A stretch of 64,000 nt of DNA from an uncultured Chloroflexia bacterium (GCA_963746845.1 CAVVCZ010000004.1:352001-416000); one strand, 5' to 3'; shown: positions 1 to 17,913, counted from the stretch's first letter. Made by a program: numbers and translations. The notes: generated from the letters alone by a model not told the origin.

Positions 1-2
1 AC

Positions 3-209
3 GCGGGTCGTCTCAAGGTCGTCAAGGTCAACGTCGACGACAACCAGGGTCTCGCCCGCCGGTTCGACGCATCGAGCATCCCGACGATGGTGGTGCTCCG
101 CGATGGCGCCGTGGTCGATCGGGTCGTCGGGGCGCTGCCGAAGCCACAGCTCCAGGCGCAGATCGCGCGCCATGTGAAGCCCCCGAAGACGACCGAGCCA
201 GTCCAGTGA
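3..209 (+). CDS. trxA: thioredoxin, C-terminal part (5' end outside the window)
   Basis: Manual translation GRLKVVKVNVDDNQGLARRFDASSIPTMVVLRDGAVVDRVVGALPK; the SIPT cis-Pro loop and VGA motif are typical of thioredoxin; TGA at 207-209. Confidence 0.85.
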   Translation, partial: AGRLKVVKVNVDDNQGLARRFDASSIPTMVVLRDGAVVDRVVGALPKPQLQAQIARHVKPPKTTEPVQ

Positions 210-233
210 AGGCCGAGAAGTGCTACTCGGCCT
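210..233. other. perfect 8-bp inverted repeat with 8-bp spacer (AGGCCGAG-AAGTGCTA-CTCGGCCT); terminator-like hairpin or array boundary site
   Basis: Seen directly after the trxA stop; contains TGCTACTCGGCC, similar to the right flank of the array repeats. Confidence 0.5.
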
Positions 234-338
234 ACCCCGGCGACCAGTAGACCAGCGGTCAGATGGGCGGCCAGTGCTCCTTCGGACCCAGACGCAGTCG
301 GGTTCTACCGGGACCACCGGGCGAACTAGACTCCGGGC

Positions 339-637
339 GTGCGACAAGCCCGACTGGCGCTGTTCGTCGGGGTCGTCGGCCTCCTTGCCTGGCCCCTGTC
401 CTACGCATGGATCCCGAATGCCGGACACAACCCGGAATGGATCGGGGTTGTAGTCCCCGTGGCCGAGTGGGGAGCGGTCGCGTGTGCGGTCATCGCGATC
501 TGGCTCGGGATCAGGTCACGGCGAGCCGGCGTGACATCGCTCGCAGCCGTCTGGGCACCCGCGTCGGCCTCCTGACGCTCGGTCTGATGGCCATCGCCGC
601 CTTCGGGATCGCGCCTGCCCTGCATCGAGAAGGTTGA
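339..637 (+). pseudogene. small membrane protein with about 3 TM segments, split by a frameshift near 560
   Basis: ORF 339-575 (two hydrophobic segments) continues in another frame as RVGLLTLGLMAIAAFGIAPALHREG to TGA 637; TAGACT -10 box at 327-332, 6 nt before the GTG. Confidence 0.6.
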
Positions 638-875
638 CCATGCGCTAGAGCCGCTGGGCGAGCATCCACGCCCCAGCCGGCCTCCCAACCGCTCGTCGTC
701 CTCGAGGCCGTCCCGGGCCGCCTGAAGCTCCCACTGGGCGATCAGGCGCTCCGCTTGATCCGGTAGCTCGCCCCCGCCGATAGCCGTTGGAGCGTCGCCG
801 CCCGCTTGAAGCCGCCTGCCGCACGACGTCGGTGAGGCCATGGCGGCGGTAGGCCGGTAGACTCCGGGGCCTGCC

Positions 876-2060
876 GTGTCGACGCCATCGCACTCCCGAC
901 TCAAGACCCCCGAGGACATCGATCGCGTCGCGGGCATGGCCGATCCCGTGATCCGCAACCTCCAGATCACCCAGGCCTATCACGATCTCTCGGACGCGGC
1001 GGCGGCGCTCCTCGGGCCCGTCGCCAACTGGTGCACGTACGCGACGTGGGCGTCGAAGCAGGCCGGACGCACGATCCGCAAGGAGGACATCCAACGCGCG
1101 CTGGAGGCGGCGTTTCGAACCTCACCGGCCGCGATGGGCGCCTCGAGCGAGGTCATGACGGAGGCAAGCCGATTCGGCGCGGACATCTCTGTCAGCGACT
1201 CGCTCCGGTCTGTTTGGGAGGTCATCGATCCTGCGGCCGCACTGGATCAGGCCAGCGCCGCGGTTGCCCGTGGCAACCTCCGCGTGTTCGAGGAGATCGG
1301 CCGCGAGTTCGCGCGCTTCGACGTCGAGTGCGGCGGGGATGCGGCCGTCGACCCGGACACCCTCGCCCGGTTCGTGGAGGGTCTTGTGCCGGGCGAACCG
1401 CCCGAAGGACAGCGCTACCTGCGCCAGGCCTTCTCCCATTACCACCAGGCGCGCTTCGAGGTCAACCCGATGACGCGCGCCCAGCTCGTCCTGCTCGCCA
1501 ACCTGGAGATCGGTTTCCACGAGCAGACCCGTCTCCAGCCGGAGATTGCGGCTGCGCTCAACGCCGCCGTCGTGGATCCACGCGACAGGCGGGAGCGCGT
1601 CGTCGCGGCCTTGTTCCCGGATGCCGGCTGGATCGTTCGGTCGCGTGTCTTGATCGCCCGGCTGCGCGGGCGACGCACGCTGCTCGATCTCGCCATCGAC
1701 GCGCTGGTCCTCGAAGAGCAAGCGCTCGTACGCCGCGTCCTGACTCGTCACTTCATGTCCATCGACCTCGGGGCCGCCCTCCACCTCAGGCTCGGCGAGG
1801 ACCTCGGCGCGGACTTCCCGCCGTCACTTCGGGAGATCGTCCTGCCCGAGCTCCGCCAGCTTCTCGATCGGATCGATCCGACGCGTGATGACCCGCGGGA
1901 ATCCGGTGCCGTGGACTGGGCCGATCTCGATGATCGGGTGCATTTCATCGCCGAGATGTTCCGGTGCTTCCAGGAATCACCGTTCCTGTTCGACCCGCCA
2001 TTTACGCCGGCACAGCTGCTACTGCTCGACGCCGGCGAACGACCGCCAGATCCGCTCTGA
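876..2060 (+). CDS. hypothetical protein (394 aa)
   Basis: Long ORF with GC3-biased codons and globular composition (RNLQITQAYH, ANWCTYATWASKQAG); TAGACT at 858-863. Confidence 0.8.
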   Translation: MSTPSHSRLKTPEDIDRVAGMADPVIRNLQITQAYHDLSDAAAALLGPVANWCTYATWASKQAGRTIRKEDIQRALEAAFRTSPAAMGASSEVMTEASRFGADISVSDSLRSVWEVIDPAAALDQASAAVARGNLRVFEEIGREFARFDVECGGDAAVDPDTLARFVEGLVPGEPPEGQRYLRQAFSHYHQARFEVNPMTRAQLVLLANLEIGFHEQTRLQPEIAAALNAAVVDPRDRRERVVAALFPDAGWIVRSRVLIARLRGRRTLLDLAIDALVLEEQALVRRVLTRHFMSIDLGAALHLRLGEDLGADFPPSLREIVLPELRQLLDRIDPTRDDPRESGAVDWADLDDRVHFIAEMFRCFQESPFLFDPPFTPAQLLLLDAGERPPDPL

Positions 2061-2152
2061 TGCCACGGCGGCTGACGGGTCGAGGAGCGGCCACCTCGGC
2101 GGTCCCGGGCCCGCGGGAAACGCGCCGCTACCGTGGCCGCCTGGTTCGGCCC

Positions 2153-2174
2153 GATAGACCTTTCCCTTGCATTG
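2153..2174 (+). repeat. cassette-boundary repeat copy 1 (GATAGACCTTTCCCTTGCATTG)
   Basis: One of six direct copies of GMTRRACCYTTMCCTTGCAYTG. Confidence 0.95.
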
Positions 2175-2496
2175 CTACACGGCCGTCGCACATCGACGGA
2201 ACCGACCCGCGGGGCTGGTGACGACACCACAGACCATGCACAGCTTCACCCGCCAATCGTCCGCAGGGTTGCTGGCGCGGTCTATTCGCTCGCGGTGCTA
2301 CGCCCCTGGAGCCATACTCGATGGCTCCACTACGGGCGGCGGTGAGGATCCGACGTGCTCGACCAGCGGCGGTCGTTCTGGGCGCGGTGCTCTCGCGCTT
2401 GCTGACGGACGCATGACTCGGATCACTCCGAGCAGACGGGCGGCATGGAGCCGGGGTCCGCATGAACAGCGTGATGCCGGACGCAAGGAGGCTGCG

Positions 2497-3189
2497 ATGA
2501 GGCTGTTCGAGCTTGCCTACGCGTGCCGGGTCTATGGCCACATGACCGATTACGACAACGCTCTAGTGCAATTCCGCAAGGTTGCACAGCCACAGCTCGA
2601 CCCATCTCGTCCGGAGCAACAGGTGGCGCTATTCCGCTGGCTCAACGAGTGGGGGTGTCGGCAGTTCGCGAAGCAGCATCACGCGACCGTCGCCGCAGTC
2701 TCGCTCGTGCGATGGGCAGATCGGTGGCTCGGCTCGTTGCCCGGACCTGACGCTCGACTCGAAGAACTCGGTCCAGCGGAGCTCAAGCGGGCGGCCGATG
2801 CATACGGTGCGCTCCAATCTCAGATAGCAAGCCACCGAGGTGCGAGCTCGACACCCGTCAGGTTCGGAGCTACCGGCGCGGCGAAGACCCTGTTTGCGTT
2901 GCGACCGAACGTCTTCGCACCCTGGGACGATCCCATCCGCGTCAGATTGCACCTCGACGGCGGGCGATCCAGCTTCGCCACCTACTTGGCGGTAGTAGCT
3001 GACCACCTGCGCGCGCTGTCAGCGGAGGCGGGCGTGCCTGTCGCGGACCTGCCGGCCCTCGTTCGGCGCCCGGGATCGACACCGCCGAAGCTCATCGATG
3101 AGTACAACTGGGTCGTGATCACGAGGAACAGCCGTCCCCCTTCGCGTGCGGAGTTGGCGCAATGGCTGCAATGGGCAGACCTGCCCTAG
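2497..3189 (+). CDS. hypothetical protein (230 aa), possibly an alpha-helical DNA glycosylase-like fold
   Basis: AAGGAG SD before ATG 2497; motifs FGATGAAKTLFALRP-x4-PWDDPIR and KLIDEYNW. Confidence 0.75.
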   Translation: MRLFELAYACRVYGHMTDYDNALVQFRKVAQPQLDPSRPEQQVALFRWLNEWGCRQFAKQHHATVAAVSLVRWADRWLGSLPGPDARLEELGPAELKRAADAYGALQSQIASHRGASSTPVRFGATGAAKTLFALRPNVFAPWDDPIRVRLHLDGGRSSFATYLAVVADHLRALSAEAGVPVADLPALVRRPGSTPPKLIDEYNWVVITRNSRPPSRAELAQWLQWADLP

Positions 3190-3274
3190 CCATTCCAGGC
3201 TGGCTACCAGCCGCCTCGCGGATGTGCACCGGGTTCAACTAGCCCGCGACTTGGCGCCCCTCGTTCCCGCACTC

Positions 3275-3296
3275 GATGAACCTTTCCCTTGCATTG
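3275..3296 (+). repeat. cassette-boundary repeat copy 2 (GATGAACCTTTCCCTTGCATTG)
   Basis: Direct repeat. Confidence 0.95.
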
Positions 3297-3440
3297 GTTC
3301 TTCGCCGTTCCCGGAGATGGACCAACAGGCGCCATCCGGCCGGAATGGTCTCGATCGCGGACAGATGGGTCGTGGCACCGGGACCAGTCGAGCCATGGCT
3401 AGGCACGGGGCCCACGTCCCGTCGCTACAGTTGGATGGCG

Positions 3441-4253
3441 ATGGCCAAGAAGACGCCCCAGGAAGAAATGCGCGAGTTCCTGACCGGGCAGTCACCGGAG
3501 CGGGCCGCGATGCGCCGTTTCTTCAGCCGCCTGCCCAGCGGGCCGAACTGCAAGATTTGCGCTGCGCCGTTCGCGGGACCAGGTGGGGCGGTCCTTGGAC
3601 ATGTGGGCTTTGGTCGCTTCGCCGGTAACCCCACGATCTGCAACTTCTGCATCACGGATCTGCAGCGTAAGGGAGTCCAGGGCGCGGAGATTCCGGTGAG
3701 CCTGCTGTTTGCCGACATCCGTGGCTCGACTGCCATCGGCGAGCGCCTATCTCCGACTGAGTTCCGGGCTTTTCTCGACCATTTCTATCGGATCTCGTCG
3801 AAGGCCGTGGTGGGCAGCAACGGCATCGTCGACAAGTTCGTCGGTGACGAGGTCATCGGCCTGTTCTTCCGTGGCATCAGCGGCGATGACCATGCGGCTG
3901 CGGCCATCAGGGCGGGACGGACGCTGCTCTTGCGGGCGGGACGCGCGGATGTCACGCCGACCGGCCCGATCCCCATTGGCGCTGGCGTCCATACAGGGGT
4001 CGCCTTCGTGGGCTCGACGGCGACGGACGGCGTCGTGAAAGACTTCACGGCACTCGGGGACGTGGTCAACACGACGGCGCGGCTCGCGGGCCATGCCGCA
4101 AGCGGTCAGCTCCTCGTCTCGGTCGAGGCTGCCATGGCGGCCGGCATGGACACTACGGTCCTCGACCGTCGCACGGTCGAAGTTCGCGGCCGCACCGAAC
4201 CCGTCGAGGTCGTCTCCTTGACGATCACGGGCGAGCCGATCGCGGCGAGCTGA
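3441..4253 (+). CDS. class III adenylate/guanylate cyclase with N-terminal CxxC...CxxC putative Zn-binding domain
   Basis: LLFADIRGST, DKFVGDEV, GVHTG and FTALGDVVNTTARL motifs; CKIC and CNFC; alternative in-frame ATG at 3435. Confidence 0.9.
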   Translation: MAKKTPQEEMREFLTGQSPERAAMRRFFSRLPSGPNCKICAAPFAGPGGAVLGHVGFGRFAGNPTICNFCITDLQRKGVQGAEIPVSLLFADIRGSTAIGERLSPTEFRAFLDHFYRISSKAVVGSNGIVDKFVGDEVIGLFFRGISGDDHAAAAIRAGRTLLLRAGRADVTPTGPIPIGAGVHTGVAFVGSTATDGVVKDFTALGDVVNTTARLAGHAASGQLLVSVEAAMAAGMDTTVLDRRTVEVRGRTEPVEVVSLTITGEPIAAS

Positions 4254-4363
4254 TCGTCAGCGTGGCGGGAAGTACCTGAGCATCAGGATCGTCGCTATTC
4301 GTCTTCCTGATGGTGATGAAGCTGGGAGCCTCACCGACGCCACCAGACGCGGCCCTCCGCCCG

Positions 4364-4385
4364 GATAAACCCTTCCCTTGCATTG
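4364..4385 (+). repeat. cassette-boundary repeat copy 3 (GATAAACCCTTCCCTTGCATTG)
   Basis: Direct repeat. Confidence 0.95.
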
Positions 4386-4492
4386 CTACATGGCCTTCGC
4401 AGCGGCTAGCGATTCGGGGACCTGACTTGAACGCGCGTCCGGCCGAGGTCGCCGAGTGGTGATCGCTGTCTGTCCATGGCTATGCTGGGGAC

Positions 4493-5119
4493 GTGGTGCG
4501 TGACGGCTACTGGCAGAACGTCTACCTGACGCGGCCGCCTGCTGAGGTCGGCTGGTACGAGCCGGACCCGGTTGTATCCCGGCGTCTGGTCGCGGAGGCC
4601 GTTCGCGGTGGGGCTCAGAGCGTCCTCGACGTCGGCGGGGGAGCCTCGTCCCTGGTAGACCATCTGCTCGACCTCGACATCCCACGCATCGCCGTGCTTG
4701 ACGTGTCCGACGCCGGGATGGACGTGTCGAGGCGCCGCCTTGGCAGTCGCGCGAGTCGAGTCGAATGGATTGTCGGTGACGTGACGAGCGTGAGCGACGT
4801 GGGTCAGTTCGACATCTGGCACGACCGTGCCGTCTTTCACTTCCTGGTCGAGCCTGAGGACCGCGCGGCCTACGTCCGTCTTGCGCAAAGGACGCTCGGC
4901 CACGGAGGAACCCTGTTCGTCGCGACCTTCGCCCCAGATGGCCCAGAGCGATGCAGTGGGCTACCAGTCTGCCGGTACGACGGCGACCTCCTCGCGCAAA
5001 CCCTGGGACCAGCCTTCCGACTCGACGCCACCGAGCGGTACACCCACACGACGCCGGGTGGCGTCGCCCAGGCCTTCGTTTACGCGGCCTTCGCACGCGT
5101 CGGCAACGTCCTCGACTAG
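4493..5119 (+). CDS. class I SAM-dependent methyltransferase
   Basis: VLDVGGGAS motif I and WHDRAVFHFL; TATGCT -10 box 6 nt before the GTG. Confidence 0.9.
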   Translation: MVRDGYWQNVYLTRPPAEVGWYEPDPVVSRRLVAEAVRGGAQSVLDVGGGASSLVDHLLDLDIPRIAVLDVSDAGMDVSRRRLGSRASRVEWIVGDVTSVSDVGQFDIWHDRAVFHFLVEPEDRAAYVRLAQRTLGHGGTLFVATFAPDGPERCSGLPVCRYDGDLLAQTLGPAFRLDATERYTHTTPGGVAQAFVYAAFARVGNVLD

Positions 5120-5146
5120 ACCAACGGCAACGGCGGCGACCGAACC

Positions 5147-5168
5147 GCTGAACCTTTCCCTTGCATTG
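5147..5168 (+). repeat. cassette-boundary repeat copy 4 (GCTGAACCTTTCCCTTGCATTG)
   Basis: Direct repeat. Confidence 0.95.
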
Positions 5169-5314
5169 GTTCTCGGCCTGCTCCCGTCCTGATCGCCTAG
5201 GGGATGTCGTCGGCCACGAGACGTTGTAATCTGCCGAGACTGCCCGTCTCGGTGCTGATCGCACCGGGCGGGCATTTCTGTATGAGAAGGAGCGACGGGC
5301 GGAGGGAGGCAACG

Positions 5315-6256
5315 GTGACCACGGAGAACGAGGCCCCAGGCAAGGTAGGCGTCGTGAACGTGGGAGGGGCGCACCTTCGGTATCGGATCGAGGGAAAAGG
5401 CCAGCCGTGCCTGGTGGTCGGCTCCAGCGTCTGCTACCCCCGAGTGTTCTCGCAGGACCTGCGCCGGCACCTGCAGCTGATCTTCGTCGACCTGCGGCAC
5501 TTCGTCGACCCGCGAGAACTTCCTTCGGCGGATCCGTCGTTCGATCTCAATCGAATCTCCCTCGACACCTATGCCGACGACATCGAGCAGGTCCGACAGG
5601 CACTCGGGCTTGGCGACGTGGTCGTGATCGGCCATTCCATCCACGCCACCCTCGCGCTGGAGTACGCCCGCCGCTATCCCGAGCATGTCCGAGGCGTGGT
5701 CCCCATTGGCGGGTTCGCTGGAACGGAAGGAGACGAAGCGGCGACCGACGCGCTCTGGGACGCCGCGTCCGACGAGCGGAAGGAGATCTTCGCTCGGAAC
5801 AAGGCCGAGCTGACGTCCGAGCTGCAGGCCAGCCTCTCGCCGTCAGAGTTCTTCGTCCGCCGGTACGTGGCCCTTGGGCCGTGGTACTGGTACGACCCCA
5901 CGACCGATGCTTCCTGGCTATGGGAGGACGTCGTGCCGGACATGCCTGTCTTCACTCGACTGGGGGAGCTGCTCAACCCGTACGACCTGGCCCAGGGGCC
6001 AGGCGAGATCAGCGTGCCGGTGCTCATCGCCGACGGCAAGCATGACTTCGGCAATCCCTGGACGAACTGGGAAGCGCACGCGCACAAGCTCCCCCGCCAC
6101 ACCTTCGCGTTCTTCGAAAAGAGTGCGCACTTTCCGTCGCTCGAGGAGCCGGAGCTCTTCGACCGGACGCTGCTGGCGTGGATCGAGGATCTCGCTCCCG
6201 CTCCCCTGATCTCCGTCGGTTCGACTCTAGGTCGATCACCAGTCACCGAGAGCTAG
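5315..6256 (+). CDS. alpha/beta hydrolase (proline iminopeptidase-like)
   Basis: GHSIH nucleophile elbow, GKHD acid and SAHFP catalytic His; GGAGG SD before GTG 5315; its stop TAG lies inside repeat copy 5. Confidence 0.88.
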   Translation: MTTENEAPGKVGVVNVGGAHLRYRIEGKGQPCLVVGSSVCYPRVFSQDLRRHLQLIFVDLRHFVDPRELPSADPSFDLNRISLDTYADDIEQVRQALGLGDVVVIGHSIHATLALEYARRYPEHVRGVVPIGGFAGTEGDEAATDALWDAASDERKEIFARNKAELTSELQASLSPSEFFVRRYVALGPWYWYDPTTDASWLWEDVVPDMPVFTRLGELLNPYDLAQGPGEISVPVLIADGKHDFGNPWTNWEAHAHKLPRHTFAFFEKSAHFPSLEEPELFDRTLLAWIEDLAPAPLISVGSTLGRSPVTES

Positions 6257-6273
6257 ACCTTTACCTTGCACTG
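6252..6273 (+). repeat. cassette-boundary repeat copy 5 (GCTAGACCTTTACCTTGCACTG)
   Basis: Direct repeat; supplies the stop codon of the upstream gene. Confidence 0.93.
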
Positions 6274-6430
6274 CTGGTCGGGGTCCTCTGATCGCCCGTT
6301 GATGGCGTCGTATGAGGACTTTCGACCCCCCAATTCCGACCACCGGCCCGGCCTAGACTCGCGACGTGACGAAGCGAATCGCGGCCACTCCTGCGACTTC
6401 GTAACGCGGCAGCCGTAGGGGCGGATCGAC

Positions 6431-6547
6431 ATGCGCTTCATCCTCGCCTGGGTGTATCTGATCTACCTGTTCGCCAGGCAGCACCCGAAGACGTTCCTCG
6501 CGATCTGGGGATCGCTGATCGTGTTGGGCGCGATCACGAAACGCTGA
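6431..6547 (+). CDS. 38-aa small membrane protein MRFILAWVYLIYLFARQHPKTFLAIWGSLIVLGAITKR
   Basis: Manual translation (below the ORF-track size cutoff); AGGGG SD-like sequence upstream; two hydrophobic stretches; TGA lies inside repeat copy 6. Confidence 0.65.
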   Translation: MRFILAWVYLIYLFARQHPKTFLAIWGSLIVLGAITKR

Positions 6548-6564
6548 ACCCTTCCCTTGCACTG
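6543..6564 (+). repeat. cassette-boundary repeat copy 6 (GCTGAACCCTTCCCTTGCACTG)
   Basis: Direct repeat. Confidence 0.95.
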
Positions 6565-6697
6565 GTCGCAACCCGGTCCTGACGACATCGTCTGCTGATC
6601 ACGGAGCCGGCCCGCCCCACGACGCCGGGTAGACTGGTTGCATGCTCAACGAGTCACTTCGCGTCGACGACATCTGCGCTCCGACGCAGCCGGACCG

Positions 6698-7350
6698 ATG
6701 AAGGTCGAGATCTGGTCGGACGTCGTCTGCCCGTGGTGCTACATCGGCAAGCGCCGGTTCGAGCGGGCCCTCGCGGACTTCGACGGGGCCGCCGACATCG
6801 AGGTCCAGTGGCGGAGCTTCCAGCTCAATCCGGATCAGCCGCGCGGCGTCCGCGCCACCCACGATGAGTACCTCGCCGCGAAGATGGGGGCGAGCATCGA
6901 CCAGGTCCACCAGCTCAACGCCCGCGTCGTCGCGCTCGCCGCGGAGGAGGGCCTCGAGTACCACTTCGAGACCTACCAGGTGATCAACACCTTCGATGCG
7001 CACCGCGTGGCGCACCTGGCCCGGGCGAACGGTTTCGACGATCCGGCGCAGGAGCGGCTGCTGCGGGCCCAGCTCGTCGAGGGCGAGGTGCTCGACGACG
7101 CGGACACCCTCGCCCGACTCGGCGGCGAGATCGGCCTCGATCCGGCCGACGTCCGGCGGTCCTCGCGACGGATGAATTCGCCTCGGACGTGCGTCACGAT
7201 CTCGCAGAAGCGCGGGCGCTGGGCATCAACGGCGTGCCGTTCTTCGCCTTCGACCGGCGGTTCGGGGTGTCCGGCGCGCAGCCCGCCGAGATCTTCCTCG
7301 ACGCGTTGCGCATGGCCCGGGCCGAGGCCGGCGGCGCGACGCCGGTCTAA
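6698..7350 (+). CDS. DsbA/FrnE family oxidoreductase with a frameshift near 7160
   Basis: MKVEIWSDVVCPWCYIG; the C-terminus GINGVPFF...GVSGAQP is in a shifted frame ending at TAA 7350. Confidence 0.85.
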
Positions 7351-7440
7351 GGGTCCGATGCGTCCGCTTCGGCGACGAGCGATGAGTCCTGCGGCCTCCA
7401 GCGGTCGTATCGTCGAACCCATGACCGAGGAGGACGTCCG

Positions 7441-8004
7441 ATGCGCAGCGTGACCTATTCGATGGGCGTCTCGCTGGACGGCTACATCGTGGGGCCGGAC
7501 GGCAACATCACCTCGTGGGCGCCTGACGAGGAAGTCTGGCAATTCGTGCTGGACGAGATCCGCGGGGTCGACGTCCACCTGATGGGCCGCCGCCTGTACG
7601 AGACGATGCTGTACTGGGAGGACCCGGACCAGGAGTCCTCGTTCGACGCCTCGGAGCTCGCGTGGGTCGCGCTCTGGAGGCCGCTCCCGAAGGTGGTGTT
7701 CTCGACCACGCTGTCGGCGGTGGAGGGCACCGCCCGCCTGGCGTCCGGCGGCCTCGTTGAAGAGATCGAGCGGTTGCGGGCCGAGCCGGGCGAGGGCGAC
7801 ATCGCGATCGGCGGCGCGACGCTCGCCGCCGAGGCGGCGGCGCTGGACCTGATCGACGAGTTCCGGATCCGTGTCTACCCGGTGCTGGTCGGCGGCGGCA
7901 TCCCGTACTTCCCGCGGGCCGAGCGCCGGGTGGATCTCGAGCTCGTCGAGACCCGGACCTTCAGCTCGAAGGTCGTCTACCTCCGCTACCGCGTGCCGCG
8001 CTAG
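7441..8004 (+). CDS. dihydrofolate reductase/RibD C-terminal family protein
   Basis: SLDGYI, MGRRLYE, GGATLA and PVLVGGG motifs. Confidence 0.88.
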   Translation: MRSVTYSMGVSLDGYIVGPDGNITSWAPDEEVWQFVLDEIRGVDVHLMGRRLYETMLYWEDPDQESSFDASELAWVALWRPLPKVVFSTTLSAVEGTARLASGGLVEEIERLRAEPGEGDIAIGGATLAAEAAALDLIDEFRIRVYPVLVGGGIPYFPRAERRVDLELVETRTFSSKVVYLRYRVPR

Positions 8005-9506
8005 CCGCGTTCCGAGGCAGTCGGCGGTCCGAACCAGGTGGTCAGCGCCTCGGCGAGCCCCAGCTGCGTCCCGTCTCCCACCCACGCCACGTATCCGTCT
8101 GGCCGGATCAGCACGGCGGAGGGGGCGGCGACCGCCCCGAGGGCCGGAAGCTCCCACGGACCGTCGGACCTGGCCTCGACCAGCCGAACCCGATCGGCCC
8201 ACGGCGTGATGTCGAAGCCGCCGGGCGTTCCAAGATCGATCAGCACCGGCCGGGCATCGTGCAACAGGCTGAAGACCCGCAGCGGGCCGTCGGCGGTGAC
8301 CAGGTCGAGATCGGGCATGCGGCGTCCGAGCAGCGCGTGGCCCACGCCGAGGTCGTAGTGAATGTCCAGGCCGGACATCATCGCGGCGAACCGTCGACGC
8401 GGCTCGTCCATGCTCAGGAGCTCGGACACGCTGTCGCGCAAGGCCTCGGTGCGCTCGTCGGCGCGCGTGAGCGCGACCTGCGCCATCGTGGTGCGGAGCA
8501 CGCGGGCACCGACGGGGTGCCGCTCGTCGTGGTACGTATCGAGCAGACGCTCCGGCGAGATCCCCTTGACCACCTGCGCCAGCTTCCATCCCAGGTTCAC
8601 CGCGTCCTGCACACCGGTATTGAGGCCCTGCCCACCCACCGGGGAGTGCACGTGGGCAGCGTCGCCGGCCAAGAGGACGCGTCCCTTGCGGTAGGCCGCG
8701 GCCTGGCGAGTCACGTCGGTGAACCGGGTGATCCAGGTGAGATCGTGGATCCCGTAATCGGTCCCGTACACGGCGATGAGGCCCTCGCGAAGGTCGCGCA
8801 GGGTGGGCTCGGCGGTGCCGACCTCCGGCTCGGTCAACATCACCCCGACCGTCCCGCCCGGCTTGTAGACCACCGCGCCGTCCTGGATCTCGTACTCGAC
8901 CTTGCCCAGGGCATGCGTGCCCGACGGCGTCCGGCGAATGCCCAGCTCGGGCTCCTCGGTCATCTCGACCTCGGCGAGCAGGGCGCTCGTCGTCGCATCC
9001 CAGCCGCGGAACTCGATGCCGGCTTCCTTGCGGACCAGGCTGCGTCCTCCGTCGCACCCGACGAGATACGGCGCCCAGAGGCGTCGACCGTCGGACAGCA
9101 CGACGTCCACGCCATCGTCGTCCTGCGCGAACCCGGTCACCTCGGTGCCGTAGTGGATCGGGACCTTCAGCTCGGCGACCCAGCCCGCGAGGATGCGCTC
9201 GATATGTCGCTGCCACAGACCCAGCCCGTAGGGATGCCGGGTGGGAAAGTCGCTGATGTCCAGCCGGATCATTGCGAACCCGGCGACCTGGGCCACCTGC
9301 CCCTCGGCAAGGAATCGATCGGCGAAACCGCGCTGATCGAGGACCTCGATCGTGCGTGACTGCAGGCCGCCGGCGCGCGAGCCCGGGAGGTCCTGGTCCG
9401 GGCGCCGCTCGACGATGACGGAGTCGACGCCGGCGAGGGCCAGCTCGCCCGCCAGCATCAGCCCCGTCGGACCAGCTCCGGTGATCACCACCGCATGCCC
9501 GGTCAT
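8001..9506 (-). CDS. FAD-dependent aromatic monooxygenase (PheA/TfdB; rifampicin monooxygenase-like architecture)
   Basis: GAGPTG, GCDGGRS, LAGDAAHVH-x3-GGQGLN and C-terminal LIRPDGYVAW. Confidence 0.9.
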   Translation of the reverse strand: MTGHAVVITGAGPTGLMLAGELALAGVDSVIVERRPDQDLPGSRAGGLQSRTIEVLDQRGFADRFLAEGQVAQVAGFAMIRLDISDFPTRHPYGLGLWQRHIERILAGWVAELKVPIHYGTEVTGFAQDDDGVDVVLSDGRRLWAPYLVGCDGGRSLVRKEAGIEFRGWDATTSALLAEVEMTEEPELGIRRTPSGTHALGKVEYEIQDGAVVYKPGGTVGVMLTEPEVGTAEPTLRDLREGLIAVYGTDYGIHDLTWITRFTDVTRQAAAYRKGRVLLAGDAAHVHSPVGGQGLNTGVQDAVNLGWKLAQVVKGISPERLLDTYHDERHPVGARVLRTTMAQVALTRADERTEALRDSVSELLSMDEPRRRFAAMMSGLDIHYDLGVGHALLGRRMPDLDLVTADGPLRVFSLLHDARPVLIDLGTPGGFDITPWADRVRLVEARSDGPWELPALGAVAAPSAVLIRPDGYVAWVGDGTQLGLAEALTTWFGPPTASERG

Positions 9507-13353: not shown

Positions 13354-15723
13354 ATGACGACCGACGCACCCCTCCAGACGACCCCCGAGGTCGGGGGCAT
13401 GGGTCACTCCGTCAAGCGCAAGGAGGACCCCCGGTTCATCCGGGGAAAGGGCGAGTACATCGACGACGTCAACCTCCCGGGCCAGCTCTGGCTCGACATC
13501 GTCCGCAGCCCGTATGCCCACGCCACGATCAAGGGCATCGACGCCAGCGAGGCGTTGAAGGTCCCGGGCGTGGTCGCCGTGATCACCGGCGCCGACCTCG
13601 AGAAGGCCGGTCTCCACTGGATGCCGACCCTCGCGGGCGACAAGCAGATGGTCCTGCCGACGACGACCGTGATGTACCAGGCCCAGGAGGTCGCGGCCAT
13701 CGTCGCCACCTCGCGCTACGCGGCCGCCGACGGCGTGGCCGCCGTGATGGTCGACTACGAGCCGCTGCCGGTCATCGTCGACCCGCACAAGGCGCTCGAG
13801 CCGGATGCGTTCGTCCTCCGTCCGGACCGGGGTCCGGACAAGCAGAACAACCACATCTGGCACTGGGAATCGGGGGACAAGGCCAAGGCCGATGCGGCGA
13901 TGGCCGCCGCCGAGGTCCACGTCGAAGAGGACATCTACATCCCGCGGATCCACGTCGCGTCGATCGAGACGTGCGGCTGCGTCGCCGACTGGGACGCCGT
14001 CCGCGGCCAGCTGACCCTCCACATGACCACCCAGGCGCCGCACGCGATCCGGACGGTCCTCGCCCTGGTCTCCGGCCTGCCGGAGCAGAACATCCGGGTG
14101 AAGACCCACGACATCGGCGGCGGCTTCGGCGGCAAGGTGCCGGTCTACCCCGGCTACGTCCTCGCGGTCGTCGCCAGCCTGACCGTCGGCAAGCCGATCA
14201 AGTGGATCGAGGATCGCTCGGAGAACCTCCAGGCGGACTCGTTCGCCCGGGACTACCACATCCACGCCGAGATGAGCGCCACCAAGGCGGGCAAGATCAC
14301 CGGCCTCAAGGTCCGGACGATCGCCGACCACGGCTACACCGATGCCGCGGCCGACCCGTCGAAGTTCCCGGCCGGGCTGTTCAACGTCATCACCGGCTCG
14401 TACGACTTCCAGAACGCGTTCGTCGAGGTCGACGGCGTCTACACGAACAAGCCGCCGGGCGGCGTCGCCTACCGCTGCTCGTTCCGGGTGACCGAGGCCG
14501 TCCACGCGATCGAGCGGATGGTCGACATCCTCGCCCACGACATCGGCAAGGACCCGGCCCAGCTCCGGATGGAGAACTTCATCCAGCCCGACCAGTTCCC
14601 GTACGCCACGCCGACGGGCTGGTCGTACGACTCGGGCAACTACCCGGCCGCCCTCCAGAAGGCGATGGACATGATCGACTACGCCGGGCTCCGCCGGGAG
14701 CAGGCGGAGAAGCGGGCCCGTGGCGAGCTGATGGGCATCGGGATCAGCAGCTTCACCGAGATCGTCGGCGCGGGACCGTCCCACGACTTCGACATCCTCG
14801 GGATCAAGATGTTCGACTCGTGCGAGATCCGGGTCCACCCGACGGGCAAGGTCATCGCCCGGCTCGGCGTCCAGTCGCAGGGCCAGGGCCACGAAACCAC
14901 CTTCGCCCAGATCATCGCCGAGGAGCTCGGCTTCCCGGTCGCCGACATCAAGATCGAGGAAGGCGACACGGATACCGCGCCGTATGGGCTCGGGACCTAT
15001 GCGTCACGCTCGACACCGGTCGCCGGCGCCGCCACGGCCGTCGCCGCGCGCAAGATCAAGGAGAAGGCCCGGCACATCGCCGCGCATCTCCTCGAGGCGA
15101 GCGCGGACGATCTCGAGTGGTCCAACGGGAAGTGGAGCGTCAAGGGCTCACCCGAGCGCTTCAAGACCATCCAGGAGATCGCCTTCGCGGCCTACACCAA
15201 CCATCCGGCCGGGATGGAGGCCGGCCTCGAGGCCGTCGACTACTACGACCCGCCGAACCTGACGTTCCCGTTCGGCAGCTACATCTGCGTCGTCGACATC
15301 GACAAGGGGACCGGTGAGGTCCACGTCCGCCGCTTCGTCGCGATCGACGACTGCGGCAACATCATCAACCCGATGATCGTCGACGGCCAGATCCACGGCG
15401 GGCTCACGATGGGCCTGGCGCCGGCACTGTACGAGTCGATCACCTACGACGACAACGGCAACAACCTCGCCGGCACGTTCATGGACTACCTCCTCCCGAC
15501 CGCGGTCGAGACTCCGGCGTGGGAGGTCGGCAAGACGGTCACGCCGTCGCCGCATCACCCGATCGGCGCGAAGGGCGTCGGGGAGTCGGCCACCGTCGGC
15601 GCCCCGCCGGCGATCGCGAACGCCGTCGTCGATGCCCTGTGGCATCTCGGCGTCCGCAACATCGACATCCCGATCACCCCCCAGAAGGTCTGGGCGATCC
15701 TGCACGAGAAGGGCGTCTCGTAG
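13354..15723 (+). CDS. coxL: form I CO dehydrogenase large (Mo-Cu) subunit
   Basis: Active-site signature AYRCSFR and coxMSL gene order. Confidence 0.96.
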   Translation: MTTDAPLQTTPEVGGMGHSVKRKEDPRFIRGKGEYIDDVNLPGQLWLDIVRSPYAHATIKGIDASEALKVPGVVAVITGADLEKAGLHWMPTLAGDKQMVLPTTTVMYQAQEVAAIVATSRYAAADGVAAVMVDYEPLPVIVDPHKALEPDAFVLRPDRGPDKQNNHIWHWESGDKAKADAAMAAAEVHVEEDIYIPRIHVASIETCGCVADWDAVRGQLTLHMTTQAPHAIRTVLALVSGLPEQNIRVKTHDIGGGFGGKVPVYPGYVLAVVASLTVGKPIKWIEDRSENLQADSFARDYHIHAEMSATKAGKITGLKVRTIADHGYTDAAADPSKFPAGLFNVITGSYDFQNAFVEVDGVYTNKPPGGVAYRCSFRVTEAVHAIERMVDILAHDIGKDPAQLRMENFIQPDQFPYATPTGWSYDSGNYPAALQKAMDMIDYAGLRREQAEKRARGELMGIGISSFTEIVGAGPSHDFDILGIKMFDSCEIRVHPTGKVIARLGVQSQGQGHETTFAQIIAEELGFPVADIKIEEGDTDTAPYGLGTYASRSTPVAGAATAVAARKIKEKARHIAAHLLEASADDLEWSNGKWSVKGSPERFKTIQEIAFAAYTNHPAGMEAGLEAVDYYDPPNLTFPFGSYICVVDIDKGTGEVHVRRFVAIDDCGNIINPMIVDGQIHGGLTMGLAPALYESITYDDNGNNLAGTFMDYLLPTAVETPAWEVGKTVTPSPHHPIGAKGVGESATVGAPPAIANAVVDALWHLGVRNIDIPITPQKVWAILHEKGVS

Positions 15724-15757
15724 GGCTCCGCCCGGCGAACGTTCCGGACCCGCGTCC

Positions 15758-16804
15758 ATGACCCGCAGCGTCTTCGCGAGGGCGGCCGAGCTCGAAGAGG
15801 CCGGCCGCCCGTTCGTCGTCGCGACCGTCGTCGCCGTCGCCCGGCCGACGTCCGCGCGACCCGGCGCGAGCGGCATCGTCCACCCCGACGGCACGATCGA
15901 GGGCTGGGTCGGCGGCAGCTGCGCCCAGCCCGTGGTCGTCCGCGAGGCGCTCCATGCGATGGCCGACGGCCAGCCCCGCCTCCTCCGCCTGTCGAAGGAC
16001 GGGCCGGCCGAGGGGCGGCGCGCCGACGGCGTCATCGAGCTCGTGATGACCTGCCACTCCGGTGGCACCCTGGAGATCTACGTGGAACCGCATCTCCCCG
16101 CGCCGCTCCTGTGGGTCGCCGGCACGACCCCGATCGCCGGCGCCCTCGCCACGCTCGGTGCCGCCTCCGGATGGCGCGTCTCGGTCTTCGACCCGTTCGC
16201 GGCCGCGGAGGACTTCCCGGCGGCGGAGCGGGTCAGCCCGGAGGTGGCGCTCGGTCGCGTCGACCCGGAGTCGAGCCCGTACATCGTCGTCGCGACGCAG
16301 GGCCAGTGGGACGAGGAGGCCCTGGCCGCCGGGCTCCGCCGGAATGCCTCCTACGTCGGGCTCGTCGCCTCACCGACGCGGGCGAACGTCGTCCGCCAGT
16401 GGCTCCGCGACGAGACCGGTCTCGCCGAGGAGCGGCTCGCCGCGCTCCGCGCCCCGGCGGGCATGGACCTCGGCGCGGAGACGCCCGAGGAGATCGCGCT
16501 CTCGATCCTCGCCGAGCTGGTCCAGGTCCGGCGCGGTCGCGCCCCGTTCGTCGCGGCGCCCGGTCCGGCGACGCTCAGCGGTGACGCGGCCATGGCCGTC
16601 CAGCCGCTCCAGCCCGTGGTCGACGACATCGTCCTCGTCGACCCGGTCTGCGGGATGACGGTGGATCGCTCGACGGCTCGCCACCTCGCCGAGCACGACG
16701 GCACGGTCTACGCGTTCTGCTCGATCGGCTGCCGGACGCGGTTCATCAAGGAGCCGTCGGAGTATCTGTCCGCTCCCGGCACGCACTCCATGGAGGCCTC
16801 ATGA
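15758..16804 (+). CDS. XdhC/CoxF-CoxI family maturation protein with C-terminal YHS domain
   Basis: GWVGGSC, CHSGG and GAETPEEIALSI; C-terminal DPVCGM...FCSIGC. Confidence 0.88.
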   Translation: MTRSVFARAAELEEAGRPFVVATVVAVARPTSARPGASGIVHPDGTIEGWVGGSCAQPVVVREALHAMADGQPRLLRLSKDGPAEGRRADGVIELVMTCHSGGTLEIYVEPHLPAPLLWVAGTTPIAGALATLGAASGWRVSVFDPFAAAEDFPAAERVSPEVALGRVDPESSPYIVVATQGQWDEEALAAGLRRNASYVGLVASPTRANVVRQWLRDETGLAEERLAALRAPAGMDLGAETPEEIALSILAELVQVRRGRAPFVAAPGPATLSGDAAMAVQPLQPVVDDIVLVDPVCGMTVDRSTARHLAEHDGTVYAFCSIGCRTRFIKEPSEYLSAPGTHSMEAS

Positions 16805-17241
16805 AGTTCGAGGGAACCGTCGACATCGCCGCGCCGCGTGACAAGGTCTGGGCCTTCGTCATCGATCCGAACCAGGTCGGCCAGTGCGGGCCGGGGGTCG
16901 AATCGATCGAGGTCATCGACGACACGCACTTCAAGGCGACGGCGAAGGTGGGGATCGGCTTCATCAGCGCACGGTTCGTCGTGAACATGGAGATGGCGGA
17001 GCAGCAGCCGCCGGACCGGGCGGTGATCAAGGCCCACGGCCAGGCGCCCGGCAGCGCGGTCGACGCGACGGCCCAGATGACGCTCAGCGACGGCGAATCC
17101 GGCGGGACCCGGATGGACTGGAGCGCGGACGTCGCGATCTCCGGCAGCCTCGCGTCGCTCGGCGCGCGCCTGATCGAGGGGACCGCGAACAAGATGATCG
17201 GCCAGACCTTCGAGTGCATGAAGGAGAAGCTCGAGGGGTAG
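16801..17241 (+). CDS. coxG: CO dehydrogenase subunit G (SRPBCC)
   Basis: VWAFVIDP...CGPG...GSLASLGARLI; located in the cox cluster. Confidence 0.85.
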   Translation: MKFEGTVDIAAPRDKVWAFVIDPNQVGQCGPGVESIEVIDDTHFKATAKVGIGFISARFVVNMEMAEQQPPDRAVIKAHGQAPGSAVDATAQMTLSDGESGGTRMDWSADVAISGSLASLGARLIEGTANKMIGQTFECMKEKLEG

Positions 17242-17274
17242 GGAAGGGCGGCCGGCCGGCCCGACCGGAGCACG

Positions 17275-17913
17275 ATGGAGCGGATCAGCCGGGTCGTCGG
17301 CCCGGTGGCGACCAACGTCCACGTCCTTGCGGATCCGCGCACGCGCGAGGCCATCGCGATCGATACGGCGATCCCGTCGCTGGCCTGGATCGCCGACGAG
17401 CTGGCCGCCCGCGACTGGACGCTCAAGCTCATCGTCTCCACGCACGGGCACTGGGACCACATCGGGGACAACGCCGCGGTGTCGGCCGCCACGGGCGCCG
17501 AGATCGCCGTGCATGCCCTGGACCGGGAGGCGCTGATCCGGCCGATGCCGCTCTGGGCGCCGTTCGAGATCCCGCCGTCCGTGCCGGCGGTCGAGCTCGC
17601 CGAGGGCGGCGAGATCCGGTTCGGCGAGATCCGGCTCCAGGTGCTCCACACGCCGGGCCACACCCCGGGCTCGGTCTGCCTGCTCTCGAACGACGATGGG
17701 CTGCTGCTCAGCGGCGACACGCTGTTCGCGGGCGGCTGGGGCCGGACGGACCTGCCGGGCGGCTCCGAGGCGGCGATCGCGGAGTCGCTCGTGCGCCTGT
17801 CCGAGCTCGAGGCGCCGGTGACGGTCCTGCCCGGCCACGGCCCGTCGACGACGATCGGCCGCGAGCGGCCGTGGCTGGAGCTGGTGCGGTCGACCGGGCG
17901 GCTGCCCGCCTGA
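17275..17913 (+). CDS. MBL-fold hydrolase (glyoxalase II-like)
   Basis: THGHWDH, HTPGHT, SGDTLF and PGHG. Confidence 0.9.
   Translation: MERISRVVGPVATNVHVLADPRTREAIAIDTAIPSLAWIADELAARDWTLKLIVSTHGHWDHIGDNAAVSAATGAEIAVHALDREALIRPMPLWAPFEIPPSVPAVELAEGGEIRFGEIRLQVLHTPGHTPGSVCLLSNDDGLLLSGDTLFAGGWGRTDLPGGSEAAIAESLVRLSELEAPVTVLPGHGPSTTIGRERPWLELVRSTGRLPA

Follow-up and report, generated by a model that had tools for sequence, protein, structure and literature searches.

Single-gene cassettes at a composite 35-bp site between trxA and dsbA of an uncultured Chloroflexia bacterium: a probable integron-like array without a recognisable integrase

The DNA considered here is a window of 64 kb (the whole stretch that was analysed, G000:C4:352001-416000) from the genome of an uncultured Chloroflexia bacterium; this genome, coded G000, comprises 3.56 Mb in 12 contigs and is 92% complete. 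Near the start of the window, between the 3' part of the thioredoxin gene trxA and a gene of the DsbA family (dsbA), a short motif is repeated in direct orientation and separates a series of single genes. This array, the anatomy of its repeated site and the evidence that it probably belongs to an integron-like cassette system are described below, with the coordinates of the features collected in Table 1. The pattern GMTRRACCYTTMCCTTGCAYTG, searched on both strands with up to 3 mismatches, has exactly 6 matches in the window, all on the + strand and each with 0 mismatches, at site-to-site spacings of 1122, 1089, 783, 1105 and 291 bp; in a shuffled-window control, matches occurred in 0/100 shuffles. 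A preliminary description, made from the sequence of the window, had reported these six same-orientation copies and no further full copy, and it was exact on both counts. Indeed, the 17-nt core of the motif occurs in the whole of G000 in the same six copies only (6 forward, 0 reverse; reversed control, 0), and a weight-matrix scan of the genome at a threshold of at least 18 bits added to these only a degenerate relic at C4:602407, which scored 22.8 bits.

As for the cargo, ORF (open reading frame) calling and family scans agree with the same description that each interval between two sites holds one gene on the + strand, and that these genes are functionally unrelated. The variable part of the locus had been taken to begin at 2153; it starts at about 236, directly after trxA, with a multi-gene segment that has no counterpart at the trxA-dsbA locus of the related genomes G016 or G065. 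Within this segment, the ORF at 263-637 had no Pfam match and the 394-aa ORF (876-2060) had no match in Pfam, NCBIfam or Atlas. The latter was considered as a candidate recombinase and set aside, as it has no family match and occurs in 5 of the 43 genomes of the genus without tracking the sites. The name trxA was given to the 3-209 fragment by eye and from the preliminary description. The GC content of the array is 0.65-0.67, against 0.71 for the genome.

Table 1. Features of the trxA-dsbA region, in window coordinates.
Feature	Position	Strand	Remarks
trxA 3' part, left conserved flank, cut by the window start	3-209	+	thioredoxin-like C-terminus, stop TGA 207-209
Right-half-only site TGCTACTCGGCCTAC	221-235	+	array left edge; flank/R hybrid junction
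First multi-gene segment of the variable region	236-2152	+	ORF 263-637, degenerate copy of the 66-aa family, 394-aa ORF
Site c1	2153-2187	+	left part 2153-2174, right part ending near 2187
Cassette 1 gene, hypothetical protein, 230 aa	2497-3189	+	no family found
Site c2	3275-3309	+	pattern match
Cassette 2 gene, class III nucleotide cyclase domain	3441-4253	+	PF00211 Guanylate_cyc, E 3.4e-9
Site c3	4364-4398	+	pattern match
Cassette 3 gene, S-adenosylmethionine (SAM)-dependent methyltransferase	4493-5119	+	PF13649 Methyltransf_25, E 1.3e-8
Site c4	5147-5181	+	pattern match
Cassette 4 gene, alpha/beta hydrolase, stop inside c5	5315-6256	+	PF00561 Abhydrolase_1, E 1.6e-17
Site c5	6252-6286	+	pattern match; homology break with L141
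Cassette 5 ORF, putative, 38-aa hydrophobic peptide, stop inside c6	6431-6547	+	no family found
Site c6, last site	6543-6577	+	pattern match; right half diverged
DsbA-family gene, right conserved flank	6698-7350	+	PF01323, E 2.5e-25 for 6698-7156

Regarding the site itself, 55 distinct copies from genomes and metagenomes were pooled; their information content is high at positions 1-24, moderate at positions 25-35 and none beyond, and the left edge is sharp. The repeat, described at first as 22-24 bp long, is conserved for about 13 nt further to the right, which makes a site of ~35 bp, GCTAAACCTTTCCCTTGCAYTG followed directly by GTACTCGGCCTTC, with a left part (L) of 22 bp and a right part (R) that is the rest. 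R is the antisense of codons 41-46 of ssb, the gene for the single-stranded DNA-binding protein (SSB). In relatives, the conservation extends rightward, and its minus strand reads as the SSB N-terminus up to ...KAEY, after which the core begins (QCKGKV); behind R, every copy has an ssb 5' fragment, in varying states of decay. The own ssb of G000 lies at C4:1048984, and its nucleotide homology to the repeat stops after GCCGAGTACCA, where the core begins. Across the 55 sites, L is almost invariant next to an ssb fragment that has decayed to noise, and this half is specific to the element.

Folding of 100 nt around each of the six window sites, on both strands, gave no significant single-strand structure (z between -1.9 and +2.3) and no common hairpin, and a search of the site against Rfam returned no match. 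The TRR triplet at the left end of the site serves two window ORFs, those that end at 6256 and 6547, as their stop, as first described; its significance did not hold up, and across the 55 sites (TAA 38, TGA 10, TAG 6 and CAA 1) the stop triplet is probably incidental, because TGG, although absent, was expected only about once, which is not significant, and only 1 of 54 sites terminates a coding-like frame of at least 80 codons. A scan of window positions 1-7400 found 0 promoter-like sites and 2 terminator-like sites, both within cassette genes and none at the cores. Three other readings of the core were rejected: TTGCAT as a -35 box, for which no -10 box stands at the right distance by eye and the promoter scan gave 0; the 5' end of a group II intron, suggested by the GTGCA with which the minus strand of the core starts, for which the Rfam search found no intron RNA; and an intein or other coding reading of QCKGKV, as two window copies have an in-frame stop just upstream.

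The relation of the sites to ssb is most complete in the genome G013. Behind its intact ssb, on the minus strand of L017 (6720-7199), come two cargo genes, one for an alpha/beta hydrolase and one for a glyoxalase-family protein. Then there is a site, after which ssb codons 1-46 appear again together with 146 bp of upstream sequence, a duplication of 284 bp at 95% identity. Four further sites follow, the last of which (17643) abuts an ssb fragment (81% over 54 nt); this outermost fragment then leads into the homologue of the G000 ssb upstream region. The entire array, 10.4 kb with five sites, has codon 46 of ssb on one side and the decayed, original 5' end of the gene on the other, and both of its flanks are syntenic with the ssb locus of G000, where ssb adjoins its GGDEF-HD neighbour and no site is present. 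The partial target copies show an age gradient, with 95% identity for the one nearest ssb and 81% for the outermost, and successive insertions at ssb codon 46, each with a new 5' end that displaces the older one, would give this arrangement.

On the other side of ssb in G013 (L017 3133-6781) there are ~3.6 kb with a multicopper oxidase and a major facilitator superfamily (MFS) transporter that are absent from the syntenic position of G000; no site borders this insertion.

At the second target, the interval between trxA and dsbA measures ~6.5 kb in the window, ~9.3 kb in G065 and ~0.76 kb in G016. The G065 interval has four strong sites and genes other than those of the window, and that of G016 has one minus-strand ORF and no site, so that the content differs among relatives, where the preliminary description had proposed identical content as a test that would speak against gene capture. 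The flanks are conserved: window 1-233 and 6620-7348 are syntenic with G065, and there is synteny with G016 as well; for trxA, window 1-233 matches G065 L026 16537-16306 at 85%, and window 6-186 matches G016 L029 14923-15103, also at 85%. At the left edge of the array, the right-half-only site has an equivalent in G065 at the corresponding place, TGGTACGCGGCCTTC. The 15-nt half-site TGSTACTCGGCCTWC has 2 exact matches in G000, namely the window left edge and ssb; with up to 1 mismatch allowed there are 3 matches, a number that the reversed control equals. A first junction without L, followed by full L/R junctions, is what is expected when circles with an L/R site enter a chromosomal R-like site. 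Arrays are found inserted at two defined targets, ssb and the trxA 3' end, each with an unoccupied allele in a relative.

A small local rearrangement accompanies the variable region at trxA-dsbA: the ORF of the G016 interval (L029 15207-15683) has a 74% identical counterpart in G065 (L026 5724-6198), on the other side of dsbA.

The cassettes themselves recur in different surroundings. A DUF4760 cassette is common to G021 (L021 3256-4014) and G065 (L026rc 7354-8109) at 91%, with homology up to and including the final base of L and no further. Two further cassettes are found at different loci of different genomes: a cyclase cassette is common to G065, at trxA-dsbA, and G016, on C4 near 600 kb (83%), and a DUF642 cassette is 92% identical between G065 and G016 (C1 near 413 kb), in genomes whose syntenic flanks are 78-83% identical. 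The window array has such breaks too, since the match of window 6121-6273 (the end of the hydrolase gene plus c5) to the metagenome contig L141 stops on the final base of L, and that of window 3275-3372 to the metagenome contig L160 (2550-2643) begins at the first base of c2, with a different left neighbour. In support of gene capture, the same cassettes occur in other genomes and loci, and their homology ends at the site. Among 68 sites, the cross-contig pairs have both flanks in common in 7 cases, the left only in 6 and the right only in 18. In the arrays, the cargo comprises hydrolases, several cyclases, a methyltransferase, glyoxalase, YCII and SnoaL proteins, a luciferase-like oxidoreductase, DUF4760 and DUF642; it is a set of diverse accessory genes.

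The evidence at the level of sequencing runs consists of contigs from older runs, and the six coded runs that hold part of the locus are all labelled as soil metagenome. In run X1, one contig agrees base for base with window 6562-7016 and has 95 unrelated nt at its left, the break being at most 2 nt from the L/R boundary of c6; a 20-nt search for this alternative left sequence matched 0 of 167 loci. A contig of run X5, from a strain ~94% identical, joins 2134, shortly ahead of c1, to 5144, shortly ahead of c4; with 36 nt on its shorter side, this junction is weak evidence.

As for the distribution of the site, 9 of the 43 genomes that represent the genus contain the core; among assemblies with at most 30 contigs, 6 of 14 have sites by the author's count. 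In the sister family, 0 of 24 sampled genomes contain it. Across the class, a sample of 401 genomes gave, outside the genus, 10 single one-mismatch matches, against 22 in the reversed control by the author's count. In a scan of all species genomes, 95 stretches matched, where the author's rough estimate of chance matches is ~140; those that look real come only from records with Chloroflexia or Chloroflexota titles and from one 3.3-kb contig titled Acidimicrobiales. Metagenomes contributed 32 contigs, 30 of them at 64-72% GC; 29 of these high-GC soil contigs hold 44 sites of at least 20 bits, often in direct arrays 0.25-1.4 kb apart, and the thirtieth has its site at the contig edge. Six viral contigs from a scan of viral contigs, with 37-52% GC, were taken as chance matches.

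Concerning the contig titled Acidimicrobiales (L093, 3.3 kb), its cassette and site context are the same as those of L021 and L044 from the Chloroflexota genus, which suggests either mis-binning or transfer of the cassette.

On the strength of these sequence comparisons, the array is probably an integron-like, site-specific system, with small mobile gene cassettes held at a composite site of ~35 bp. Direct support comes from the anatomy of the site and the ssb origin of its right half, from the empty and occupied alleles with their differing cargo, and from cassettes that stand in different contexts with breaks at the site. The cassettes would be stacked by conservative site-specific recombination at L/R, with the natural ssb sequence and the look-alike just after trxA as the chromosomal targets. 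A cassette would consist of an R flank, the cargo and L, and as a circle it would carry one L/R site; its insertion into B/R would yield B/R-cargo-L/R, in which internal junctions are full L/R and the first junction is without L. At ssb, the gene would stay intact only if the cassette supplied a replacement ssb 5' end with its promoter, and it is because inserted cassettes would bring such ends that ssb fragments would be left to decay behind the sites. We infer from this arrangement circular intermediates, a crossover near TG/STAC and a recombinase rather than RecA. The gene-capture interpretation of the preliminary description is supported on the whole, as all three outcomes that it had named as refuting it were looked for and none was found: besides the fixed content already discussed, these were a transcription-factor site and the terminal repeat of an insertion sequence (IS), which are dealt with below.

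The enzyme of this integron-like system would be encoded outside the arrays, and a recombinase acting in trans fits the data. The tyrosine recombinase family PF00589 has 4 matches in G000, two full-length and two fragments. The full-length pair, named by sequence and neighbours, consists of XerD, after recN, and XerC, after topA; a syntenic XerC/XerD pair is present in 5 further genomes, and none adjoins an array. One of the two fragments lies 58 kb away and the other on another contig. The integrase fragments of G000, G005 and G013 were rejected as the enzyme of the arrays, being frameshifted members of one phage-type family that apparently lie beside tRNA genes and not beside sites; their frameshifts could be assembly errors, because the window dsbA is also frameshifted. 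Searches of G000 for serine recombinases, IS110 and Y1-HUH proteins had no matches, the DDE, Y2 and TnpB families not being among those searched for, and no integrase or recombinase was found among the array ORFs of the window, G013 (including 14300-17700), G065, G005 and the metagenome arrays. A search of G000 with a generic dif pattern gave no convincing dif with which the site could be compared.

The sole reverse transcriptase of G000 gives the group II intron reading of the core no support either, as it is far from the array, stands next to a helicase-like ORF and lacks an intron RNA. At G000:C4:720-724 kb (L164 3679-7130), this 502-aa protein is encoded directly 3' of the 647-aa helicase-like ORF, and by eye the pair looks like a defence-type system.

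It should be noted that several points weigh against a dedicated cassette system. First, G000, at its stated completeness, offers no recombinase candidate beyond the intact XerC and XerD, and the site has no dyad symmetry, a usual trait of the core sites of tyrosine recombinases; moreover, nothing in the analysis accounts for the origin of the L half. Second, the orientation of cargo genes within the cassettes is mixed, though mostly the same as that of the sites. Third, part of the comparative evidence can be read in other ways: the 83% identity of the cyclase cassette in G016 and G065 is no higher than that of the core genome, so that the copy could be old, and of the 18 pairs with only the right flank in common, the common ssb fragment accounts for 6, and in 3 the left flank is too short to be informative. 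Finally, the contigs of the sequencing runs contain no circle, excision product or order variant of the window array; X1 and X2 are without cover of 2471-3705, a gap that speaks neither for nor against such variants.

Among the alternatives, the one that survives best is that larger elements with their own tyrosine integrase entered ssb repeatedly and then decayed, the sites being attP-type junctions and the cassettes deletion remnants. The age gradient of G013, from the copy next to ssb to the outermost one, agrees with such accretion, the junction types (flank/R, repeated L/R and L/original 5' end) suit tandem integration, and phage-type integrase fragments do exist in these genomes. A precedent is given by the tycheposons, for which the consulted part of the source describes that later integrations push older elements into the island and leave partial copies of the target gene behind (10.1101/2020.12.28.424599). 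The present arrays are like them in having a highly conserved target gene, a partial target copy that flanks each unit, older units placed outward and degenerate partial target copies scattered in the island; they differ in that the target is protein-coding (ssb codon 46) and not a tRNA gene, that the units, of 0.25-3.7 kb, have no integrase or replication module, and that an element-specific arm of 22 bp is kept at every junction. Several observations make this alternative unlikely: no examined array (window, G013, G065, G005 or metagenome) contains an integrase fragment, and the fragments that were found apparently adjoin tRNA genes rather than sites; some units are as short as 249-291 bp; each interval of the window is one intact gene, which would be a rare outcome of random deletion; the same single-gene units are found in different contexts; and L, nearly invariant beside a decayed ssb fragment, must be under selection where it now sits.

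A second possibility is homologous recombination by RecA, with the 35-bp repeats and ssb fragments as anchors and no dedicated recombinase, much as in the minimal mobile elements of Neisseria, which are variable segments between conserved flanks. It would agree with the lack of a recombinase in G000 among the families searched and with the missing dyad symmetry of the site, and the G013 insertion between direct repeats of 284 bp is the classical signature of a single (Campbell) crossover. A length of 22-35 bp is no more than the minimum that RecA usually needs to recombine efficiently, and such a process leaves unexplained a nearly invariant, sharp-edged L that lies in non-coding DNA, in genomes with flanking genes of 75-83% identity; as it accounts neither for the missing L at the first junction nor for the origin of the chimeric L/ssb junction, this explanation is quite improbable.

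Lastly, that the motif is a regulatory or RNA element (an operator, a terminator or a processing site) of co-regulated genes in an ordinary cluster, as its position between same-strand genes and the stop triplet at its left end might suggest, is largely refuted and has very little probability left, because the motif is a chimera that includes ssb coding sequence, does not stand singly upstream of genes elsewhere and is confined in the genome to this array and one relic, has no Rfam match or significant fold, coincides with none of the promoter-like or terminator-like predictions, and marks breaks of homology at a locus whose content varies among relatives.

Returning to the integron-like reading, the known system closest to these arrays is the integron itself. 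Integrons are, to our knowledge, alone among well-understood systems in accumulating single genes without promoters at one place in the chromosome; what defines them is IntI together with a folded attC. The attC sites are imperfect palindromes, 55-140 bp long, with R''/L''-L'/R' boxes, and they fold in single-stranded form. The likenesses are several: both have one-directional arrays of small, mostly single-gene, unrelated cassettes, each with one end site; in both a chromosomal site contributes to the first junction, which is a hybrid, and the stop of an ORF is sometimes inside the site; and in both the content and order of the cassettes vary among relatives. Even the absence of an integrase has a parallel, as integrase-less arrays, or clusters of attC sites lacking integron-integrases (CALINs), are known among integrons from the consulted part of PMC4889954. 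The differences concern the site and its surroundings: the 35-bp site lacks the long imperfect palindrome, the RYYYAAC...GTTRRRY ends and the significant fold of attC, no IntI-type integrase adjoins the array, the target half copies the coding sequence of an essential gene, and the arrays start in or beside ssb and trxA instead of at an attI next to intI. The statement of the preliminary description that the repeat is not attC is borne out by the absence of a reverse copy, of dyad symmetry and of a shared hairpin, and its second exclusion, of clustered regularly interspaced short palindromic repeats (CRISPR), by the spacing of 291-1122 bp and the protein-coding genes between the sites, where a CRISPR array has repeats of 25-40 bp with non-coding spacers of similar size. 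Unlike the terminal repeats of ISs and miniature inverted-repeat transposable elements (MITEs), the site has 0 reverse-strand copies and no inverted partner, and the search of G000 for IS110 and Y1 transposases, which did not extend to the DDE families, was negative.

The other relevant comparison is with the modules moved by Xer recombinases. Sites of the pdif type are dif-like, 28 bp long with an XerC-spacer-XerD structure whose two 11-bp arms have partial dyad symmetry, and are reported to alternate in orientation. The present arrays have small modules with short sites in common with them, and XerC and XerD are the sole intact tyrosine recombinases of G000, the use of a host recombinase in trans being only a possibility here; the sites of the present arrays are direct and without dyad symmetry, and the arrays are chromosomal. 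For pdif/Xer modules and integrative mobile elements exploiting Xer (IMEX), the consulted parts of the sources describe small gene modules between short sites that are moved by a host recombinase in trans (PMC6449649, PMC13141974). In the literature searched, cassette arrays that target ssb are not described, and neither are Chloroflexota arrays of a non-attC kind.

The arrays thus combine an integron-like architecture and the comparative signatures of one (variable arrays, cassettes that occur across loci and empty sites) with a different kind of site and no recognisable integrase. A further and more tentative proposal, which we hold to be possible but somewhat short of an even chance, is that they represent a gene-capture platform of soil Chloroflexota with an independent origin, an analogue of the integron with integrase-less cassettes, a non-folding 35-bp site and a target half that mimics ssb, for which the catalyst would be the host XerC/XerD or a recombinase of an unrecognised family. 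If this were true, the capture of genes as cassettes would have evolved more than once, and with a new targeting logic, in which the element copies part of an essential gene and repairs that gene on insertion; mimicry of ssb would guarantee a target in every host. From a practical standpoint, the 22-bp left half offers a handle for PCR or for the mining of reads, by which the accessory gene pool of this uncultured soil lineage could be sampled as is done with attC primers.

Some minor observations concern the genes around the array. In the DsbA-family gene of the window, the frame changes near 7160, and the ORF 6638-7453 overruns the expected stop at 7350; the C-terminal third is correct in another frame, and the G065 orthologue is intact, with 217 aa. 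This frame change could mean that the gene is truly a pseudogene or that the assembly contains an indel error.

The degenerate gene copy in the first segment of the variable region belongs to a family of proteins of 66-67 aa, encoded in a repeat unit of ~250 bp (...PDQAERLIAQWELQAARDG...); the window copy is at 645-845 on the minus strand, and its N-terminus looks degenerate. The 27 database homologues of this family are without informative annotation or Pfam domain (one bears the JGI label YoaH/UPF0181), and there was no Pfam or NCBIfam match. It is a multi-copy family of the same variable islands, with a copy at L166 7164-7364 and several copies in L018, L019, L022, L024 and L027.

As for the relic on C4, this degenerate seventh site occupies 602407-602524 (L024 8408-8525) and comes with an ssb 5' fragment of 114 nt. 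Its surroundings form a second variable island in G000, with homologous segments that are common to the island loci of G016 (L019 and L022), and the distance from the relic site to xerD is ~13.6 kb.

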